A stretch of 64,000 bases of DNA, from assembly GCA_035509435.1 (NCBI GenBank), contig DATJLR010000002.1:209677-273676 (forward strand). The letters run 5' to 3'. Source of the stretch: Minisyncoccota bacterium. Its GTDB lineage: Bacteria > Patescibacteriota > Minisyncoccia > UBA6257 > 2-01-FULL-56-20. The first letter of the stretch is position 1. Every line of letters begins with the position of its first letter. The notes under the pieces were generated by a model. That model was not told the origin of the DNA and did no database searches. It saw only the letters and a list, made by a program, of their open reading frames with translations. Positions 4,135 to 58,998 of the stretch are shown in pieces. Made by a program: the position numbers and the translations under genes.

Positions 4135-5007
4135 ATGATGGCACGGCTGAACAACGGATACACGAAGGTCGCGGTGTTCATCCTGCTGCTCGGGCTCGTG
4201 GCCTTACTTCAGCTTGAGTATGATGCGGTGAAGGTAACCCTGCCCGCGTCGTCGGAGCAGGACGTGTCGCCGTTCATGGTGCGGCTGCTCGACATGGGCT
4301 TCCATCCGGCGGTCGCGTCGTTCCTGTGGGCAACGACGATGCCGGAGATCCTCGATCTCTGGAACGGCAAGACGGAATATTTCACCGATCTCGCGTTCGT
4401 GAACGCCGTCGACCCCAAGCTGAGCTATCCGTACGCGTTCTCGGTGCTCACGCTCACGGCAGTGCCGTCACAGGACGATCCCGACGCGATAGCGCAATCG
4501 ACGGCGATCGGCGAAGAGGGGATCGCGAACGGCGATCCGGACTGGCGCATCCCGTACTATATGGCGACGAACGAATTTTTGTACGCGAAGGACGACGCCG
4601 CCGCCGCGAAATATTATGATATGGCCGCGAACACGCTGGGTGTGCCGCAGTACGCCGCGCGGTTCTCGTTGAACTTCGGCATCGAGACGGACCAGCGCGC
4701 GAAAACGGAGCAGTTGTGGGAGACCATCAAAGATTCCACGAACGACCCGGATGAGAAGGCGCGCGCGCAGGCGTACATCGACCACCTGGAGGACTTTGAT
4801 TATCTGGACGCCGCCTCAAAGGCGTACAAGGCAAAATTCGGCGTCTATCCGACGTCCACCGACGAACTCGTGGCCAAGGGCATCATTCCGTCCGTACCCG
4901 TTGACCCCTTCGGATTCACGTTCATCATCAACTCCGATGGCACGTCGGCGATCGATCTTGCGACGAGCGCATTGCCGTCATATATCCTCGCGGAACCGTC
5001 CCAGTAG
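4135..5007 (+). CDS. hypothetical secreted/membrane-anchored protein
   Basis: N-terminal TM/signal segment (VAVFILLLGLVALL) and an acidic soluble domain. Directly follows the ABC transporter genes. Confidence 0.5.
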   Translation: MMARLNNGYTKVAVFILLLGLVALLQLEYDAVKVTLPASSEQDVSPFMVRLLDMGFHPAVASFLWATTMPEILDLWNGKTEYFTDLAFVNAVDPKLSYPYAFSVLTLTAVPSQDDPDAIAQSTAIGEEGIANGDPDWRIPYYMATNEFLYAKDDAAAAKYYDMAANTLGVPQYAARFSLNFGIETDQRAKTEQLWETIKDSTNDPDEKARAQAYIDHLEDFDYLDAASKAYKAKFGVYPTSTDELVAKGIIPSVPVDPFGFTFIINSDGTSAIDLATSALPSYILAEPSQ

Positions 5008-5058
5008 GACAATGAAAAACACCCTCGCGCCTTTACGCGGGGGTGTCTTTCATATCAT

Positions 5059-5943
5059 TTACTCGTAGATGGTTCCCGTCGCCGTGCTGGTGGACGATGC
5101 GGGAGGGCATCCCGCAGTGCTTGTCGCGCCTGCCGGTATCATCGGGCAGGCAGCAGGGAGCGTTGCCGTGGAAGAGACGGTCGTTGTGGCCATCCCGAGT
5201 TCCGCTTCAAGCTGGATCGCGAGCGTTTCCAGTTGGTTCAATTCCGCCTGGAGCTCCGCGGTCGTGCTTGTTCCTGCCGTTATACCCGCCCCTGTCGTCA
5301 CCGTGCCGCCCGCGGATGATCGCGAGAGGTCGCGCACGATCTCTGCGTCCATCGTGCCGGTGCCGTCATAGTAGCCGTACACGTTGATCGCGTCTCCCGG
5401 CATGATGTTCGCGACCGCCATCGGCGTCCGGTCGTTTGCTTCCACCTGGGTCGCCGCGTCCACTACGACCGCATACGGATTATAGTAGGCGGGAGACGAG
5501 GTGGTGGAGGTCGGCGTCATCATGGGCGTCGCCACCGGACAGGCCACCGACGTTCCGATAGGCGAACTGTCCGTGATGAACTGTTCGCACGCCGCGCCGG
5601 ATGGCGGCACGGTCGCCATGACCTGCGTCACCGAAGTGCCCGATGCCGTCGTTCCAATGGATGCCACGGCCAGGCCGCTCATCTGCATATATTCCGCTGA
5701 GAGCGGATTTACGGCAGGCAAGGGCGCCGCGACCGTGGATGTCGCCGTCGCGGTCATCGCGGTGGACGTGCTTGACGATGCGGCCACGGTGGATGACGTG
5801 GTTGTTGTCGCGTTGATCACCGATGAGCTCGGTGTCGTGGTGCTTCCTGCGGGAAAAAGTTGCGCGTTGGCGATGCCGCCCGCCGCAACCATGATCCCGA
5901 ACGCCGCAATGATCGCGGCCATCATCATTATTTTTTTATACAT
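5059..5943 (-). CDS. Thr/Ser/Ala-rich secreted low-complexity (mucin-like) protein
   Basis: Signal peptide MYKKIMMMAAIIAAFGIMVAAGGIANA, long T/S/A tracts, and a short coiled-coil ELQAELNQLETLAIQLEAEL near the C-terminus. Confidence 0.55.
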   Translation of the reverse strand: MYKKIMMMAAIIAAFGIMVAAGGIANAQLFPAGSTTTPSSSVINATTTTSSTVAASSSTSTAMTATATSTVAAPLPAVNPLSAEYMQMSGLAVASIGTTASGTSVTQVMATVPPSGAACEQFITDSSPIGTSVACPVATPMMTPTSTTSSPAYYNPYAVVVDAATQVEANDRTPMAVANIMPGDAINVYGYYDGTGTMDAEIVRDLSRSSAGGTVTTGAGITAGTSTTAELQAELNQLETLAIQLEAELGMATTTVSSTATLPAACPMIPAGATSTAGCPPASSTSTATGTIYE

Positions 5944-7151: not shown

Positions 7152-7637
7152 CTATGCGCGATACTCTTTTTCCGTCGCGATGATCTTTTTTGCGAGCTGT
7201 TCGAAATGCTCCAAATAGCGCTTGTCTTTGCGCCGCTCGCGGTTCCGTACGACGTATTCTTGTATCTCCCCATTCTCCCACGCCCGGGCGATGTAGTTGC
7301 CGAACATCTCGTCCACAAGGTCGAGCGACACGATGCCTCCCGCGATGAACCGTTCGATCATCTCAAAGTAGCGCAGGTAGGCGTGGATGTCGTATTCCGT
7401 GAACTCGCCGCCGTTCTTTTGGAAGACCGGCTGATGCTCCTCGATCGCTTTGATGATCTTGCGGTTCGTCGGGTTTTCGTAAAAGAATTCGCGGTTGAGC
7501 CGCGCGATGAAATCCGCGTTACTTTGGCTGCGGATCTTGTTCACCTGATAATAGGCCACGTAAAGCAGGCCGAGGGTGGCAAGGAACAGTCCCACTTGGG
7601 AAACGGTATTCACGACATCCAAAGTGCCGGGAGTCAT
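7152..7637 (-). CDS. hypothetical membrane-anchored protein
   Basis: 161-aa ORF with an N-terminal TM helix, divergent from the next gene. Confidence 0.45.
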   Translation of the reverse strand: MTPGTLDVVNTVSQVGLFLATLGLLYVAYYQVNKIRSQSNADFIARLNREFFYENPTNRKIIKAIEEHQPVFQKNGGEFTEYDIHAYLRYFEMIERFIAGGIVSLDLVDEMFGNYIARAWENGEIQEYVVRNRERRKDKRYLEHFEQLAKKIIATEKEYRA

Positions 7638-7703
7638 GCTTTAAGTATATCAAAATCGTCTCATTTCGTAATTTTTTAATGTACGGATTGGTATAATGGT
7701 TCT

Positions 7704-8336
7704 ATGCGGCCATTTCCTAAATCCGTCCTTGAGCAATACCCCAAGGAATTTTCGGTGTTCAAAAAGCTGCGCACGCCGGGCGATGTACAGGATCTTTTGA
7801 ACGCGCTCAAGATGAACTTCGAGACCACGCATGAGCGGTGCCGGTCGCCGCTGCTCGTTTTGCGCGACGGCAAAGCGCATTGCATGGAAGGCGCGCTTCT
7901 TGGCGCCGCCGCGCTGTGGAATCAGGGCCACCCACCGCTCTTGCTCGATCTCAAGACCGCCGATCCGGACGTGGACCATGTCATCGCGCTGTTCAAAGAC
8001 GGCGACCGGTGGGGCGCCGTCAGCAAGACGAATCACGCCGTTTTGCGTTACCGCGATCCCATCTTTATGAACGTGCGCGAGCTCGTGATGTCATACTTCA
8101 ATGAATATTTTTTGGACAGCGGCGTGAAGACCCTGCGCAGCTACTCCGCCGTGCCATTCAGCATGCTGCGCTACGGGGTGAAGTGGCTGACGACCGAGGA
8201 TGACCTGGACGACGCAGTCGTCGCGCTCGACCATGCGCGCCACACTCCGATTTTTAAAAAAGGCGCCGAACGGCGCCTGCGCCGCGCGGAGCCGGTGGAG
8301 ATCAAGGCAGGGAAGATCGTGGAGTGGAAGGTTTAG
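7704..8336 (+). CDS. hypothetical protein with a possible Cys-His-Asp triad
   Basis: 210-aa ORF. It carries a conserved-looking C (AHCMEG), H (DHVIALF) and D arrangement that recalls papain/transglutaminase-like folds. This is inference only. Confidence 0.45.
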   Translation: MRPFPKSVLEQYPKEFSVFKKLRTPGDVQDLLNALKMNFETTHERCRSPLLVLRDGKAHCMEGALLGAAALWNQGHPPLLLDLKTADPDVDHVIALFKDGDRWGAVSKTNHAVLRYRDPIFMNVRELVMSYFNEYFLDSGVKTLRSYSAVPFSMLRYGVKWLTTEDDLDDAVVALDHARHTPIFKKGAERRLRRAEPVEIKAGKIVEWKV

Positions 8337-8373: not shown

Positions 8374-9648
8374 ATGAGTCCTCTCGAGAGACATAGTTCC
8401 ATGCGAACTGAGGCCGCTTTTACTCTCATCGAGCTTCTCGTCGTGATCGCGATCATCGCCATTCTCGCGGTGGTCGTCGTGCTGACACTCAACCCGGCCG
8501 AGCTCCTGCGCCAGAGCAGAGACTCCAATCGATTGTCTGACCTCAGCACCATAAGTGACGCAGTGAACCTCTATAACACGGATCAAGGGGGAAACTCTTC
8601 CTACACCTTGGGGGTCGCCTCCGATACTTATCTTTCGATCCTCGATCCCACGGCTACATCCACGACATCAGGAAATCAATGTTCGGGAATTGGCGTCGCG
8701 AGTGCTCCCGGGACCTACAGTTATCATTGCTCAGCGAGCAGCACATATCGTAATATCAACGCAACCGGCTGGATCCCGGTCAATTTTTCGACGCTTTCCG
8801 CGGGATCTCCCATATCAAGTCTTCCTATCGATCCAATCAATCAGACAAGCTCCGACCTCTATTACACCTATCAGACGAACGGAAGCCTATACAAGATCAC
8901 CGCTTTCATGGAATCGAGTAAATATGCGAAAGCTGGCATTATGGATGGAGGCACCGATCCTACCGTTGCAGAATCAGGTTCGGGGGTTGCGGCCATTCCC
9001 GACGTGGGAAGAGGCCTTATAGGTGACTGGCCGCTCAATGAAGGGGCTGGGGGTGCTGCGATTGATTGGGGCGGCGGAATGAACAACGGGACGTGGGGCG
9101 GTACACAGGCCGGAAGTTCGACGTATTATGGCTCTGGCAATAATGTGTTCCAATGGTCCGGATATTTCAATGGAACCAACGATTATGTGAGCGGTGCAGG
9201 CCTTGTTAGTTTTGGAAGTAGCGCCAATGGCACTATCCTGGCATGGATCAAGCCGTCTTCGTTGCCGGCTACCCAGACGATCCTGAGGCAAGGATTGCTT
9301 GGACAGTGTTATAGTTATGCCGCGTCCCTTCGTGGATCGACGCTCTATTCGGGCGATACTAACGGCGACTTTCTGCTTGGAGGTACGATCGCCACCGGAA
9401 CATGGCAACAGATTGCGGTCGTATTCACTCCCAGCGGGTCGCAAGGGTTTGTGAACGGAGCTGCCGTAGGCAGTAATGCGGACGGCCCTACCAATTGTAG
9501 TTCCGCCCAGAATTATTTTGCCATCGGCGTACAGGGGTATAATGCATCGTCGGCGCTGTTCTTTTCCGGATCGATGAGCGACGTACGTGTGTACGCGCGC
9601 GCCCTTTCATCGGGCGAGATCCAGCAGATCTATAATGCAGAGAAATAG
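8374..9648 (+). CDS. type IV pilin-like protein with a C-terminal LamG/ConA-like lectin domain
   Basis: Prepilin-type N-terminal methylation motif FTLIELLVVIAIIAILAVVVVLTLNP. C-terminal LamG signature (…SMSDVRVYARALSSGEIQQIYN). Paralog of the ORF at 57712-58998. Confidence 0.8.
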   Translation: MSPLERHSSMRTEAAFTLIELLVVIAIIAILAVVVVLTLNPAELLRQSRDSNRLSDLSTISDAVNLYNTDQGGNSSYTLGVASDTYLSILDPTATSTTSGNQCSGIGVASAPGTYSYHCSASSTYRNINATGWIPVNFSTLSAGSPISSLPIDPINQTSSDLYYTYQTNGSLYKITAFMESSKYAKAGIMDGGTDPTVAESGSGVAAIPDVGRGLIGDWPLNEGAGGAAIDWGGGMNNGTWGGTQAGSSTYYGSGNNVFQWSGYFNGTNDYVSGAGLVSFGSSANGTILAWIKPSSLPATQTILRQGLLGQCYSYAASLRGSTLYSGDTNGDFLLGGTIATGTWQQIAVVFTPSGSQGFVNGAAVGSNADGPTNCSSAQNYFAIGVQGYNASSALFFSGSMSDVRVYARALSSGEIQQIYNAEK

Positions 9649-9651
9649 ATA

Positions 9652-10257
9652 TTAATTCCTCCTCTCGAGCGCCGAGCCCAAGGTCTCGTCGTCCGCGAAT
9701 TCGATCTCGCCGCCGGTAGGAAGGCCGCGTCCGAGGCGGCTGACCTTCTTGGTGAGCGGCGCGAGCTCTTTCAATAAGAGCGACGCCTGAAAATCGCCGA
9801 GCGCCGTCGGGTTGAAGCCGAGGATGATCTCATCCGCCGCGCCGCCGAGCTCACCCTCTATATATTTTTTTAGGCTTGCCAGTCTGCTAGTTTGCCAGGC
9901 TTCCAAGTAACCAGTTTTTGGCACTGGGCCGACGATGAAGTATCGTCCGGTGAACTTTTTGGTGTTCTCGAGCGAGAGATAGTCCGTCTCTTTTTCCACC
10001 ACCATGATGACGCGCTGGTTCCGCGCCGGATTCGCGCAGACGTCGCAGAGCGCACCCTCGTTCTGATGGATGAAGAAGCACCGCTCGCAGATCTTGATAG
10101 CGCGGAGCGCGTCGATGCTTCCTGCCAGCGTGTGGAGCTGGTCTTTCGGCTGTCCGATCAGATAGAACGCCAGCCGCACCGCCTGGCGCGGCCCGATGGA
10201 CGGCAGCTCGGCGAGCGCGTCCACCACCTTTTGCACCGGCTCGGGAAGTTTCATCAT
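9652..10257 (-). CDS. recR: recombination protein RecR
   Basis: HhH N-terminus (LPSIGPRQAVRLAFYL), a C4 zinc finger (CERC…CDVC) and a Toprim domain. Confidence 0.9.
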   Translation of the reverse strand: MMKLPEPVQKVVDALAELPSIGPRQAVRLAFYLIGQPKDQLHTLAGSIDALRAIKICERCFFIHQNEGALCDVCANPARNQRVIMVVEKETDYLSLENTKKFTGRYFIVGPVPKTGYLEAWQTSRLASLKKYIEGELGGAADEIILGFNPTALGDFQASLLLKELAPLTKKVSRLGRGLPTGGEIEFADDETLGSALERRN

Positions 10258-10277
10258 GAGGTAATTATAAATTAGGA

Positions 10278-10670
10278 CTAGGATTTTTCTTGAATCATCT
10301 TTTCCAGCTGTGAAATTAAGTCCTCTGCTGTTTTATAAGTAATGAACTTGTTGGTAATAAAAACCAATGAATGGGAAATCACGCTTTTTTCTTGGTAAAC
10401 ACAAATTATTGGACGACTATAAATATCTGCCCATCCCAATTCTATGCCTTGGCCGGTGGACGGATAGGAAACTTCGGCGATTACGAGGTCGCAATGTTCG
10501 ATTCGCTCTTTTGTGATCTGTTCTGGTTTATCTTTCTCCTGCGGGAGAAAAACTTCATTCATCTTATAGAGCTCAGAACTTTGGATAGATTTATAGAGAT
10601 CATCTTTCCATGGAAGTGCGCTTGCGTGTGTTACGACAATTTTCATATAGCCATTATAGCCTATGTTCAA
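10278..10670 (-). CDS. nucleoside 2-deoxyribosyltransferase-like protein (low-GC insert)
   Basis: 130-aa ORF. The motif VIAEVSYPSTGQGIELGWA resembles the N-deoxyribosyltransferase / SLOG-type active-site loop. Local GC is about 35%, against about 65% for its neighbours. Confidence 0.45.
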   Translation of the reverse strand: MNIGYNGYMKIVVTHASALPWKDDLYKSIQSSELYKMNEVFLPQEKDKPEQITKERIEHCDLVIAEVSYPSTGQGIELGWADIYSRPIICVYQEKSVISHSLVFITNKFITYKTAEDLISQLEKMIQEKS

Positions 10671-10709
10671 ATTTCGAGATACTTGAAGACCAGAAAGCCG
10701 TGCAAAGCC

Positions 10710-12071
10710 TCAGAGCGCCGGCAGCTCGTCGTAGCGCTTCTCCACGGTCTTGAACGTCGTGTGCTCGCCGTCGAAGAAGAAGTCGATGTCCTTCAGCGCG
10801 CCGTTGCGGTGTTTGGCGATGCGCAGGTGGACGGTGTTGTCGAGCGAGGAAGCCGTGTCGTTCGGGTTGCGCTCGTCGCGATAGAGGAACATGACGACGT
10901 CCGCGTCCTGCTCGATGGAGCCCGAGTCGCGGAGATCGGAGAGGCGGGGGATCTTGTGGTCGCGCTGCTCGAGTCCGCGCGAGAGCTGCGAGAGCGCGAG
11001 CACCGGCACTTTGAGCTCGCGGGCGAGCGCCTTGAGGCCGCGCGAGATCTCGGTGATCATGTTCACCATGCTGTCGCTCTGGCGCCGTGCGTTGATCAGC
11101 TGGAGGTAATCCACGACGAGCAGGTCAAGGCCATGCTCCACCTGCAGGCGACGCGCCATGGATCGCATCTGGAGGACGTTCAGCGACGGCGAATCGTCGA
11201 TATAGAGCTTGATGTCCGAGAGGCGGTCGAGCGCGCCCTGGATCATCGTGAACTCTTCGTCGTTGCGGATCCGGCCGGTGAGGATGTTCCAGAGCGGCAC
11301 CTGCGATTCCGCGGAGATGATGCGGTCCTGCAGGGATTCGCGGGACATCTCGAGCGAGAAAATGCCGACGCTCGCGCCTGCCTTCGCGGCATTGCGCGCG
11401 ATGTCCAATGCGAGCGACGTCTTGCCGACCGACGGCCGCGCGCCGAGGATGATGAGTTCGGACTTGTGCAGTCCGGAGAGCGTTTCGTCGAGCGCGGGGA
11501 AACCGGTGGGTACGCCGCGCAATTTTCCGCCGCCGGCGTGAAGGTTCGCGATGCGCTCGTATGCCGTCGTAAGGTCTTCCTTCAAAGAGACGAAATTCTG
11601 CGGCATCGACTTCTGCGAGATGGAAAGGATCTTCTGCTCGACGCCATCGAGCAGGTCTTCCACGTCATCGCCCGAGAACACGTCCTCCGCGATCTCCGCT
11701 GATGCCTTGATGAGGTCGCGCAGTATCTTCTTCTCCTTTACGATCGTGGCGTAGTGCTGCACGTGCGACGCGCTCGACACATGGTTCGTGAGCTCGGAAA
11801 GGTATGTGGCGCCGCCGACCTCTTTGAGGGTCTCATGCTCCTTCAGATAATTGGTAAGGCTCAGCACATCGATCGGCTGGTGCTTCTCGTAGAGTGAAAG
11901 GATGGCGGCGTAGATGCGCTCGTGCGCCGGCGTGTAAAAATCCGGCGGCGTCAAAATGTCCGCCACGCGGAAGATCGCGTTCTTGTCGATGAGGACCGAG
12001 CCGAGCACCGCCTGCTCCGCTTCCAGATTCTGGGGCGGAAGCTTCAGTTGTGATTTCTTGCCTGGGGGCAT
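10710..12071 (-). CDS. dnaB: replicative DNA helicase DnaB
   Basis: N-terminal domain LEAEQAVLGSVLID, Walker A GARPSVGKTSLALD, 453 aa with no intein. Confidence 0.9.
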   Translation of the reverse strand: MPPGKKSQLKLPPQNLEAEQAVLGSVLIDKNAIFRVADILTPPDFYTPAHERIYAAILSLYEKHQPIDVLSLTNYLKEHETLKEVGGATYLSELTNHVSSASHVQHYATIVKEKKILRDLIKASAEIAEDVFSGDDVEDLLDGVEQKILSISQKSMPQNFVSLKEDLTTAYERIANLHAGGGKLRGVPTGFPALDETLSGLHKSELIILGARPSVGKTSLALDIARNAAKAGASVGIFSLEMSRESLQDRIISAESQVPLWNILTGRIRNDEEFTMIQGALDRLSDIKLYIDDSPSLNVLQMRSMARRLQVEHGLDLLVVDYLQLINARRQSDSMVNMITEISRGLKALARELKVPVLALSQLSRGLEQRDHKIPRLSDLRDSGSIEQDADVVMFLYRDERNPNDTASSLDNTVHLRIAKHRNGALKDIDFFFDGEHTTFKTVEKRYDELPAL

Positions 12072-27684: not shown

Positions 27685-28320
27685 TTATTTTGCTAAAGTC
27701 AAAGCTTTCAGTCTATCGAGATAAATCGTAGCTCTTTCTTGTTGCCGTTCATCCGCGATCTTTGAGATTGCAGCTTCAAGTTTTTCTTCGTCAAATCCAC
27801 GAGGATTTTTCGTCTGCCAGTCAGCGTCTTCGAGGTGGACATCATCAAGGTAGATGAGTGCGTCGCCATTTTCGCTGTATGTGAAGTTGCACGTCGTCGT
27901 GTCTATCTCAACGCCCAGCTCTTCCAATGATCCGATCAGCTGTTTATATTTCGGATCTTCATAGATCTTATCCGATGCGTCACTTGCCTTTAGATAGGCT
28001 TCTTTCGGAATCTCGCCTAACTTTGCTTCGAGTTCTCCGGCGTGTTGGATTGATTGGTGTAGGGGATCAAGAATTACTCTTTCGCGGCGGGTGGCCTGAG
28101 GATTTGATGTCGCAAGATCTACGTCTGGTATATTTTGAGGGAAAAGAATGTGGAGTATCTTCTTCAGATAGAACCTCGCTTTTATCTTCCTTTCGCGATC
28201 TTCGGTATCTTCTTTTCCTTCTTTGCGTATAGCAATGACTCGATTTGGATTATTAGAATCCTCATGGACGTCATTATCAGACCCTCCTCCAATTCGTTCT
28301 CCTGCGCCAAACTTTTTCAT
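27685..28320 (-). CDS. hypothetical protein encoded in a low-GC islet
   Basis: 211-aa acidic ORF in a roughly 40% GC segment bounded by the tRNA-Ala gene and its partial repeat. Confidence 0.5.
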   Translation of the reverse strand: MKKFGAGERIGGGSDNDVHEDSNNPNRVIAIRKEGKEDTEDRERKIKARFYLKKILHILFPQNIPDVDLATSNPQATRRERVILDPLHQSIQHAGELEAKLGEIPKEAYLKASDASDKIYEDPKYKQLIGSLEELGVEIDTTTCNFTYSENGDALIYLDDVHLEDADWQTKNPRGFDEEKLEAAISKIADERQQERATIYLDRLKALTLAK

Positions 28321-28334
28321 TAGAGTTGATTTTG

Positions 28335-28405
28335 TGGACCCGGGGAGAATCGAACTCCCGCCTCAGCAATGCGAATGCCGCGTTATACCACTTAACTACG
28401 GGCCC
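28335..28405 (-). tRNA. tRNA-Ala (anticodon CGC)
   Basis: Reverse complement folds as acceptor GGGCCCG/CGGGTCC with the G3:U70 Ala identity pair, D-arm GTTA/TAAC, anticodon loop TTCGCAT, T-arm GGGAG-TTCGATT-CTCCC. Confidence 0.85.
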
Positions 28406-57711: not shown

Positions 57712-58998
57712 ATGCGCGCACCAGGCCCTTTCCGGCAGAGGAAGGGTTTTACCCTTATTGAACTCCTCGTGGTCATCGCGATCATCGCCATTCTGGCGGT
57801 CGTCGTTGTTTTGACATTGAACCCGTCGGAGCTTTTGAAGCAGTCGCGGGATTCCAACCGCATCTCCGACATGGCAACGCTCAGTTCCGCGCTCAGCCTG
57901 TATTCCACGGACCAGTCCGGAGGGTCGGGGTTTTCCATGGGTACGCCGGGCTGGGTTTATGTTTCCATTCCTGATCCGCAGGCGACCTCCACGGCGGGAG
58001 ACCAGTGCCAAGGGCTCGGCCTGCCGACGCTTCCTGCGGGATACGCCTATCATTGCGCCGCGTCGTCCACCGTCCGGAGCGTCACGAACGCCGGATGGGT
58101 TCCGGTGAATTTCGCGGCGATCTCGTCTGGGGCGCCGCTCAGCTCGCTGCCGTTGGATCCGGTGAACGCTTCGTCCTCGCGCCTTTATTACACGTACGAA
58201 ACGAACGGCACGCAGTATGAAGTGACGGCAGTGATGGAGTCGCAGAAATACAAAGCGGGAGGAAGCGGCGATGTGATCACGCCTGACGGCGGACGGCTCG
58301 CCTCGGTATACGAAAAGGGGACCGCGCTCGGCCTTGAGCCGCTCGATTACGGCGACGCCTCGCTTGTCGGGTTCTGGCCGATGGATGAAGGATCCGGCAC
58401 GGTCGCGTACGACGACTCCGGCAGCAATGCGACCGGCACATGGAACGGCGGACAGGTGGGAACGGCAAGCGGCTATTACAGCGCGGGGAAAATCGGATCA
58501 TATGCCGGCGCCTTCGACGGGTCGAGCACCTATCTTGCGAACACCGGGAACAATCCGGCGCTTGTGCTCACGAACGCCATGACGCTCGTTGCGTGGGTGA
58601 AGGTGAACGCGTCGGGCACGGACATGAAGGTGATCTCCAAGAGGCCGTCGTACGTGCTTACCGTCTTCAGCAATAACATTCCGGAGACGGAGATATTCAT
58701 CGGAGGCACTTCAAAAGACACGCGCAGCGCAAGCGGCGGCACGACGCTCGTGAACGGCGTATGGTACCAGCTCGCGGGCACATATAACGGCAGTACGCTT
58801 ACTACGTACGTGAACGGCGTGCTTGACCGCCAGATCTCCGTAAGCGGCACGATGGACAGCACGGCGTACGTCCTTGACCTTGGGAAGACCGCCGACGGCA
58901 CGAATGCCAATTTCAACGGCCTTATTGATGACGCGCGGGTGTATAACCGGGCCCTGTCCGCCGCGGAAATAGCGGCGCTCTATAACGGCGGCAAGTAA
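57712..58998 (+). CDS. type IV pilin-like protein with a C-terminal LamG/ConA-like domain (paralog of 8374-9648)
   Basis: GFTLIELLVVIAIIAILAVVVVLTLNP prepilin motif and the LamG C-terminus (…DDARVYNRALSAAEIAALYNGGK). Confidence 0.8.
   Translation: MRAPGPFRQRKGFTLIELLVVIAIIAILAVVVVLTLNPSELLKQSRDSNRISDMATLSSALSLYSTDQSGGSGFSMGTPGWVYVSIPDPQATSTAGDQCQGLGLPTLPAGYAYHCAASSTVRSVTNAGWVPVNFAAISSGAPLSSLPLDPVNASSSRLYYTYETNGTQYEVTAVMESQKYKAGGSGDVITPDGGRLASVYEKGTALGLEPLDYGDASLVGFWPMDEGSGTVAYDDSGSNATGTWNGGQVGTASGYYSAGKIGSYAGAFDGSSTYLANTGNNPALVLTNAMTLVAWVKVNASGTDMKVISKRPSYVLTVFSNNIPETEIFIGGTSKDTRSASGGTTLVNGVWYQLAGTYNGSTLTTYVNGVLDRQISVSGTMDSTAYVLDLGKTADGTNANFNGLIDDARVYNRALSAAEIAALYNGGK

Follow-up and report, generated by a model that had tools for sequence, protein, structure and literature searches.

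What is encoded by the small low-GC gene that lies between recR and dnaB in a 64-kb window of a Minisyncoccota bacterium genome, and how did it come to lie there? The window is the whole stretch of DNA analysed here (64,000 nucleotides (nt) of contig DATJLR010000002.1), and the gene sits in its segment 10258-10709. The original prediction had described it as a nucleoside 2-deoxyribosyltransferase (NDT)-like gene, horizontally acquired into a string of replication and repair genes. From the analyses described below, we consider it probable that the segment is an acquired single-gene cassette at a dnaB-recR hotspot of high-GC Paceibacterota, and that it encodes a nucleotide N-hydrolase of the DNPH1/BcmB/MilB type.

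Family, fold and predicted active site

The open reading frame (ORF) at 10278-10670 on the minus strand is real, and when read from its TTG start it encodes the 130 amino acids (aa) that had been claimed. However, the true product is most likely a protein of 122 aa that starts at the ATG at 10646, because about 190 homologs of ~120 aa each begin with MKI.. at the point in the alignment where this ATG falls. A database protein (P0002) that is identical to the locus was called as only 94 aa (10278-10562), from Met29 of the 122-aa protein. This call drops the first strand (beta1), the first helix and the invariant His7; its start was probably misplaced by gene calling because of the atypical composition of the gene. 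The current annotation, hypothetical or truncated to 94 aa, can be corrected. Between the window copy and its 78% identical homolog at locus L001, the nonsynonymous and synonymous divergences were 0.128 (dN) and 2.2 (dS), and the resulting dN/dS of 0.058 indicates purifying selection and therefore a functional gene. An ORF on the opposite strand (10371-11702, plus) was rejected as spurious; it runs antisense to dnaB in GC-rich DNA.

A Pfam search of the window protein returned a single match, the nucleoside 2-deoxyribosyltransferase family PF05014 (23.4-23.7 bits, E 6e-5), and 48 of 64 family members matched the same profile at E<0.01 (best E 4e-7). The only matches of a sequence search of the PDB were DNPH1/Rcl, BcmB (4jen), BlsM and MilB, over residues 46-89 (122-aa numbering, used throughout). 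The AlphaFold2 monomer model of the 122-aa protein had a predicted local distance difference test score of 89.6, and Foldseek and sequence searches both placed N-hydrolases alone at the top of their rankings, with DNPH1 best in each. NCBIfam gave no match to the window protein, and PHROGs gave only an insignificant one (E 0.059), which was to phage proteins of a nucleoside deoxyribosyltransferase family. The homology search returned 189 homologs of ~120 aa; 3 of the 120 that were listed carry a source name, either Patescibacteria or soil metagenome. When 1.84 billion representatives were searched exhaustively with a profile, 169 clusters (50% identity) came out at E<=1e-30 and 463 at E<=1e-10. 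A scan of viral contigs with the family alignment detected no relatives, and literature searches found no description of a ~120-aa family of this kind in Patescibacteria. Taken together, the matches and the predicted structure support the assignment of the product as a miniature member of the NDT superfamily that would stand nearest to the nucleotide N-hydrolase branch (DNPH1/BcmB/MilB) rather than to the transferases. The family is an uncharacterised Patescibacteria subfamily of this superfamily.

The active site was compared with that of rat Rcl by hhalign, using the family profile (probability 96.5%). The landmark numbering of the rat Rcl sequence used was self-consistent, and one segment was verified against the PDB match. 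The loop VIAEVSYPSTGQGIELGWA (10428-10484, minus strand, residues 55-73) aligned with VVAEVTQPSLGVGYELGRA of DNPH1/Rcl, and both proteins share the nucleophile loop AEV-x-x-PS-x-G-x-G-x-ELG in addition to the flavodoxin-like fold. The likeness to an N-deoxyribosyltransferase catalytic loop that had been noticed at the outset was therefore borne out, with hhalign and Foldseek in agreement. The putative nucleophile Glu69 was invariant in the family alignment, with one exception (Asp, L125) among ~80 surveyed loci. In DNPH1, the catalytic triad is Y24/D80/E104, and phosphate is held by S98 together with S128' of the partner subunit (PMC10603095). Enzymes of the DNPH1/Rcl type are homodimers, the active site of each subunit being completed by a helical extension of the other, and they split dNMPs hydrolytically into free base and deoxyribose 5-phosphate. 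The two serines of the window protein that align with them are Ser63 and the nearly invariant Ser91. NDT transferases have no phosphate pocket and bind the 5'-OH with Asp or Asn, where the hydrolases carry small uncharged residues (PMC10603095, PMC12884076; residue roles were also drawn from PMC4081090). In the family, these Asp/Asn ligands are absent: Ser or Ala occupies the position six residues before the nucleophile, and Ser the second 5' ligand position. Thus, unlike class I/II NDT (PF05014), the family has serines of the phosphate-pocket type.

Other positions depart from DNPH1/Rcl. The window protein has Val at position 4 (codon 10635-10637), which aligns with the catalytic Tyr on strand beta1 (Y7 of NDT, Y13 of Rcl and Y24 of DNPH1); roughly half of the family loci have Tyr there (the consensus), and the others Phe, Leu, Val, Ile or Cys. 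Position 36 (codon 10539-10541), aligned with H45 of Rcl and H56 of DNPH1, a His that contacts the base and stabilises the leaving group, is Gln in the window copy and His in the family consensus. The helical LTEHV element of DNPH1, which follows beta2, bears E55 and H56 (PMC10603095). In its place the family has L-P-H-E (L-P-Q-E in the window protein), so that the conserved Glu37 follows His/Gln36 instead of preceding it. The general-acid Asp of helix alpha2 (D69 in Rcl, D80 in DNPH1, D72 in NDT, D78 in MilB) aligned with Glu47 in a region of low confidence, while an ungapped alignment gave Thr45. Most family members have Asp or Glu at position 47, which is not invariant, and the general acid is not clearly kept. 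His7, Pro35, Trp72, Cys82 and Tyr104 were invariant in the family alignment, with single exceptions in the wider survey of loci; Cys82 aligns with Cys106 of Rcl, and the other four have no Rcl counterpart. Compared with DNPH1/Rcl, the window protein is also shorter (122 aa against ~150-175 aa), has lost most of the shielding loop and is only ~20-25% identical overall.

Positions 4 and 36 covary strongly: 36 loci have Tyr/His and 28 have Phe/Leu/Val/Ile with Gln, while Phe/His was seen in 7 and Cys/His in 4. The window copy (Val4/Gln36) belongs to the second group, and the covariation may mark a switch of specificity. The Tyr is lacking in MilB and BcmB as well; in MilB, its equivalent is Phe17, which accommodates ribose, and the equivalent of the His is Glu62 (PMC10603095). 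MilB further carries the specificity motif F-L-(G/A)-(G/A)-P-F-(R/K)-x-L, which includes Arg23 (PMC4081090). This motif is missing from the family: the window protein begins with MKIVVTHASALPW and has V-V-T-H-A-S-A-L-P-W at the corresponding place, and the family consensus is MKIYVxHSSxFDF, with no P-F-R/K. MilB, BcmB and BlsM are CMP or hydroxymethyl-CMP N-glycosidases of nucleoside-antibiotic pathways, and the family has no antibiotic-cluster context.

Neighbours of the homologs

The homolog loci examined comprised 80 metagenomic loci and 5 from exact look-ups, in which ORFs up to four genes from the homolog were clustered and recurrent neighbours were confirmed with Pfam. Thymidylate synthase was a neighbour in 13 loci, mostly directly upstream with a stop/start overlap; dihydrofolate reductase (DHFR) in 11 loci, mostly directly downstream; and serine hydroxymethyltransferase (SHMT) in 8 loci. 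HAD phosphatases, dCTP deaminase, NUDIX hydrolases, histidine phosphatase and a TK-dNK fusion kinase also recurred. When the loci were dereplicated at 90% identity, ThyA was encoded no more than two genes away in 11 of 62, usually in the order thyA-X-folA-glyA (X being the homolog), against a chance expectation of 4/800 (binomial P ~2e-14). A restriction of this linkage to one active-site subtype was ruled out, since both subtypes are linked to thyA. No defence-type neighbour recurred across 74 homolog loci.

With E. coli ThyA, the landmarks of which were checked, the linked ThyA proteins share 40-45% identity, and they keep C146, H147, R166, S167, D169, N177, H207 and Y209. Because N177 and the other landmarks are kept and DHFR is adjacent, the linked proteins are likely genuine dUMP thymidylate synthases and not MilA-type hydroxymethylases. 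MilB and BcmB are genetically linked to a ThyA/MilA-like pyrimidine C5-(hydroxy)methylase; the family has a ThyA linkage too, although with what looks like a true thymidylate synthase and not a CMP hydroxymethylase. The thyA linkage suggests a pyrimidine deoxynucleotide context, in keeping with DNPH1/Rcl. Residence in the thymidylate operons of Patescibacteria is itself a difference from DNPH1/Rcl. Through its homologs, the gene would be tied functionally to the thymidylate cycle, and the analysis supports a predicted accessory of nucleotide metabolism rather than an anti-phage device. Of the two roles suggested in the original prediction, nucleotide metabolism thus gained from the thyA-folA-glyA linkage, whereas the anti-phage role found no PADLOC match, no defence neighbours and no viral copies.

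We propose the following mechanism, in which both chemistry and substrate of the window protein are inferred from its relatives. A flavodoxin-like enzyme, probably dimeric (the dimer being presumed), would bind a (deoxy)nucleoside 5'-monophosphate, with Ser63 and Ser91 holding the phosphate. Attack of Glu69 on C1' would release the base and leave a (deoxy)ribosyl-5-phosphate covalently bound to the enzyme; this intermediate would then be hydrolysed or possibly passed to another base. The likely substrates would be pyrimidine deoxynucleotides of the thymidylate branch, either dUMP or dTMP analogues such as 5-hydroxymethyl-dUMP or surplus deoxynucleoside monophosphates (dNMPs), because the family sits in thyA-X-folA-glyA/dcd operons of other Patescibacteria. 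Such an enzyme could serve in sanitation of the nucleotide pool or in salvage, in hosts that live by scavenging nucleotides.

Probable acquisition at the dnaB-recR junction

The flanking genes are indeed recR and dnaB, and the composition of the gene differs sharply from theirs. The contrast had been put at about 35% against about 65% GC, which is real in kind and somewhat overstated in size: we measured 38.4% for the ORF and 38.5% for 10258-10709, against 59.9% for recR, 61.7% for dnaB and 57.5% for the 64-kb window. GC at third codon positions (GC3) was 0.405 in the ORF and 0.78-0.86 in recR and dnaB; the GC anomaly therefore does not come from amino-acid composition. The ORF is the lowest-GC 393-nt stretch of the 64 kb, about 4 standard deviations below the mean, with only 0.09% of sliding windows equally low, and it ranks lowest in GC among the 72 gene-like ORFs.

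Over 67 homolog loci, gene GC tracked flank GC (r 0.78, slope 0.69) with a median deficit of 3.5 points, and the gene is therefore a settled resident in most genomes. The deficit of 20 points in the window is a strong outlier, as are those of L001 (19 points), L096 and L126. The three closest copies occupy three different loci: the window copy lies between dnaB and recR (gene GC 38%, flanks 60-62%), the L001 copy after uvrB (gene GC 36%, flanks ~57%), and the L133 copy, 70% identical to the window protein, between a histidine-phosphatase-like and an HtrA-like gene as judged by eye (gene GC 47%, flanks 50-57%). Synonymous sites are saturated between the window and L001 copies (dS ~2.2), and the best explanation for these two copies is that each was acquired separately, from a donor of lower GC. 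If this direction of transfer is right, the donors would have had a GC content of roughly 40-45% by the regression of gene on host GC. Horizontal acquisition, as originally proposed, is upheld by a 20-point deficit in a family that otherwise follows its hosts and by the placement of the closest homologs elsewhere. In four redundant low-GC contigs (L097, L098, L100 and L101), an IS91-family (Y2_Tnp) transposase and an ORF resembling phage-type integrases lie directly upstream of the homolog (homolog at ~5001-5357, transposase at L097 3679-4803), a possible vehicle for movement of the gene.

A DnaB-based scan of species-representative genomes gave 46 Patescibacteria loci, 17 of which had at least 80% DnaB identity (best segment) and were labelled Paceibacterota, Parcubacteria or Minisyncoccia. 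Conservation of the order cysS-dnaB-recR is widespread among the 46 loci, and none of them has an NDT-like gene between dnaB and recR. In L014, L020, L021, L023 and L039, dnaB runs into recR with overlapping stop and start codons (GCGCTATGATGAAA), an arrangement that we read as the translationally coupled empty site. The claim of an insertion between recR and dnaB is well founded on this comparison. In the closest relatives, a dnaB-recR gap of 178-2065 nt is occupied by unrelated cargo with a GC content of 35-46%: Peptidase_S51 with a glyoxalase-family protein, a 2H phosphoesterase with a serine hydrolase, VanY, a transglutaminase-like protein, an AAA-type kinase-like protein and unknowns (occupied gaps in Table 1). 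The cargo differs from species to species, the overlap of dnaB and recR is seen in more distant relatives, and the 452-nt occupant of the window is unique among the sampled genomes. Because the empty sites overlap and the closest relatives carry differing, unrelated cargo, the junction is a clade-specific insertion hotspot.

We found no target-site duplication or terminal inverted repeats flanking the insert, only short repeats at chance level, and no recombinase gene accompanies it. An apparent TGA duplication at the junction was rejected, as it is accounted for by keeping the dnaB stop and the recR start. The spacer between dnaB and the cassette (10671-10709) is probably ancestral and not imported, because its first ~6 nt (GGCTTT) match the spacers of related genomes (GGCWTW there).

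Longer family members were scanned for domain fusions, and the only informative one was P0159 (341 aa), in which the family domain is fused to Peptidase_S51 or possibly joined to it by a read-through gene call. Peptidase_S51 is also the dnaB-recR cargo of L007 (L007 3783-4397), and both may draw on one accessory gene pool.

Several relatives have a GC-rich element of ~135 nt just after dnaB (L013 3879-4018; L008, L011 and L012 5366-5505; L009 5354-5496), with a predicted three-way-junction fold of 41 pairs, 17 of them with compensatory changes. A covariance model found further copies at L010 2455-2589, L011 8660-8798(-), L022 1613-1710(-), L039 1559-1670 and L028 5391-5536(-). Because copies occur elsewhere and in both orientations, the element appears to be a dispersed structured repeat, similar to repetitive extragenic palindromes or miniature inverted-repeat transposable elements (REP/MITE-like), and not a single non-coding RNA gene. 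Rfam gave nothing at gathering thresholds (best permissive match E 0.36), the element is not a tRNA, and no copy lies within the 64-kb window.

Both recR and the NDT-like gene are preceded by a TATAAT box 6 nt ahead of their ATG (Table 1). The two closest homologs, L001 and L133, also have TATAAT directly upstream, and TATAAT or TATGAT stands 6-8 nt before the recR ATG in L007, L010, L011, L012, L013, L015 and L017. The starts behind the boxes of the window, and the recR starts of these seven relatives, have no Shine-Dalgarno sequence. The boxes were spotted by eye and by comparison with relatives; a consensus scan around the cassette did not flag them and found no sigma-70 -35/-10 pair and no terminator. 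Because of the box-to-start spacing of 6-8 nt, the arrangement suggests that recR and the inserted gene may be transcribed leaderless in this clade, with the box at 10653-10658 as the putative promoter of the latter.

Table 1. Coordinates of the cassette, its flanks, the predicted active-site residues and the occupied dnaB-recR gaps of relatives
Feature	Coordinates	Strand	Remarks
CDS (coding sequence) of the 122-aa DNPH1/NDT-like protein	10278..10646	-	ATG 10644-10646; TAG stop 10278-10280; GC 38.8%
recR	9652..10257	-	core gene, downstream edge of insertion site
dnaB	10710..12071	-	core gene, upstream edge; 45-90% identity to DnaB in 46 Patescibacteria species
Upstream stretch included in the TTG-start ORF call	10647..10670	-	24 nt, probably non-coding; TATAAT 10653-10658
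Spacer, dnaB stop to cassette	10671..10709	-	39 nt, 46% GC
recR leader	10258..10277	-	20 nt; TATAAT 10264-10269; homologous to the recR-proximal spacer of relatives carrying other insertions
Glu69, putative nucleophile	10440-10442	-	Rcl E93 / DNPH1 E104; G-x-E-L-G loop after beta3
Ser63, predicted phosphate-binding	10458-10460	-	Rcl S87 / DNPH1 S98
Ser91, predicted phosphate-binding	10374-10376	-	rat S117 / human S128
His7	10626-10628	-	end of strand beta1; invariant; at the Gly position of the DNPH1 G-S-I-R-G-G loop
Occupied gap, window equivalent	10258-10709
Occupied gap, L007	3776-4858
Occupied gap, L008	5363-6827
Occupied gap, L009	5351-6263
Occupied gap, L010	5357-6367
Occupied gap, L011	5363-7234
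Occupied gap, L012	5363-6013
Occupied gap, L015	5332-6448
Occupied gap, L017	5352-5923
Occupied gap, L025	5351-6268

Elsewhere in the window, a second clearly low-GC gene lies at 27685-28320(-) beside a tRNA (28335-28405(-)); it encodes 211 aa at 44% GC (GC3 0.41), Pfam matched nothing in its protein, and the gene is possibly a further acquired islet. Two large type IV pilin-like proteins, encoded at 8374-9648(+) and 57712-58998(+), carry the N-terminal methylation motif FTLIELLVVIAIIAILA; the former, directly downstream of recR on the opposite strand, also has a Laminin_G_3/ConA-like lectin domain. A DUF4760 protein is encoded at 7152-7637(-) between ychF and an unannotated 210-aa gene, where GC is slightly reduced (47-49% around 7400-7900).

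Competing explanations and implications

The nearest rival to a nucleotide N-hydrolase is a classical nucleoside 2'-deoxyribosyltransferase, which would swap bases between deoxynucleosides for salvage, alongside deoxynucleoside kinases. We regard it as unlikely: the family has small uncharged Ser/Ala at the site of the 5'-OH-binding Asp/Asn, as the hydrolases do (by the criterion of PMC12884076), the second phosphate-binding serine of DNPH1 is matched by Ser91, and N-hydrolases alone head the sequence and Foldseek rankings. The same active-site features fit a natural phosphodeoxyribosyltransferase as well as they fit a hydrolase. Such an enzyme, like phage DmtZ, would move deoxyribose-5-phosphate from a scavenged dNMP to uracil or thymine, and the resulting dUMP or dTMP would feed or bypass thymidylate synthase. 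DmtZ shows that an NDT-family enzyme is capable of this transfer, and it resembles the family in being a small dNMP enzyme with small uncharged residues in the 5' pocket and in lying beside nucleotide-metabolism genes (PMC12884076); the tight thyA-X-folA operon with its stop/start overlaps would also make metabolic sense. DmtZ is, however, phage-encoded, acts as a purine-specific dAMP hydrolase/deoxyribose-5-phosphate transferase and is linked to dUTPase and PurZ. We detected no close kinship between it and the family in sequence or structure, the viral structure matches were weak, and the proposal is at present a pure inference that we hold to be less likely again than the classical enzyme. 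To an anti-phage effector or sensor of TIR/SLOG-like type on a defence islet we give hardly any credence. PADLOC returned 0 matches for the window protein, the neighbours that recur in the 74 homolog loci are thymidylate and nucleotide enzymes and none of defence type, other cargo of the hotspot consists of miscellaneous small enzymes, and the motif fits the NDT/DNPH1 nucleophile loop and not TIR, with no viral copies in the viral-contig scan.

Low GC could also arise without transfer, if the gene were ancestral and selection or its amino-acid content maintained a high AT level. In 87% of the surveyed homolog loci, the GC of the gene is slightly below that of its flanks, and the two closest low-GC copies, anciently diverged, are both AT-rich in high-GC hosts. 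Against this, a GC3 of 0.405 beside ~0.8 rules out an amino-acid effect, the family otherwise follows host GC, the gene is missing at this site in all 46 relatives, the empty site is an overlapping dnaB/recR pair, and the three closest copies are at three loci. An ancestral AT-rich gene is therefore very improbable, and we retain the acquired cassette encoding a predicted nucleotide N-hydrolase. Several observations nevertheless weigh against that reading. The window protein falls below the PF05014 gathering threshold (23.4 vs 28.8 bits), and the enzymatic chemistry of the family is predicted by homology. At position 63, ~25% of loci have Ala in place of the Ser found in the other ~75%. Two of the three canonical triad positions are non-canonical in the window copy (Val4 for Tyr, and Glu47 or Thr45 for Asp), and its activity or specificity may therefore differ. 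Finally, the window copy is not itself linked to thyA.

A broader proposal, rather doubtful as it stands, is that the ~120-aa family, in its thyA-X-folA-glyA setting, belongs to the core of the patescibacterial thymidylate branch without having been recognised as such. Its members would be minimal enzymes, either dNMP N-hydrolases or natural phosphodeoxyribosyltransferases. The family would turn scavenged deoxynucleotides into precursors of dUMP/dTMP or clear away contaminants of the 5-hydroxymethyl-dUMP type. It would be a family that also travels between genomes as a single-gene cassette with its own promoter, and in which Tyr4/His36 versus Phe/Leu/Val/Ile4 with Gln36 acts as a substrate switch. 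If this were true, the family would be the bacterial counterpart of human DNPH1.

Most nucleotide biosynthesis is missing from Patescibacteria (the candidate phyla radiation, CPR), which rely on scavenging, yet little is known of the enzymes with which they rebalance or clean their deoxynucleotide pools. The most useful leads from this locus are the thyA-X-folA linkage and the dnaB/recR hotspot. The locus is a clean case of how tiny genomes gain single genes, with a coupled dnaB/recR pair opened into a hotspot for low-GC cargo. The nucleotide metabolism of Patescibacteria would gain a step if a compact DNPH1-like enzyme were tightly coupled to thymidylate synthase, DHFR and SHMT, and the family would offer a model of bacterial origin, easy to express, of an enzyme class now pursued as a cancer drug target.

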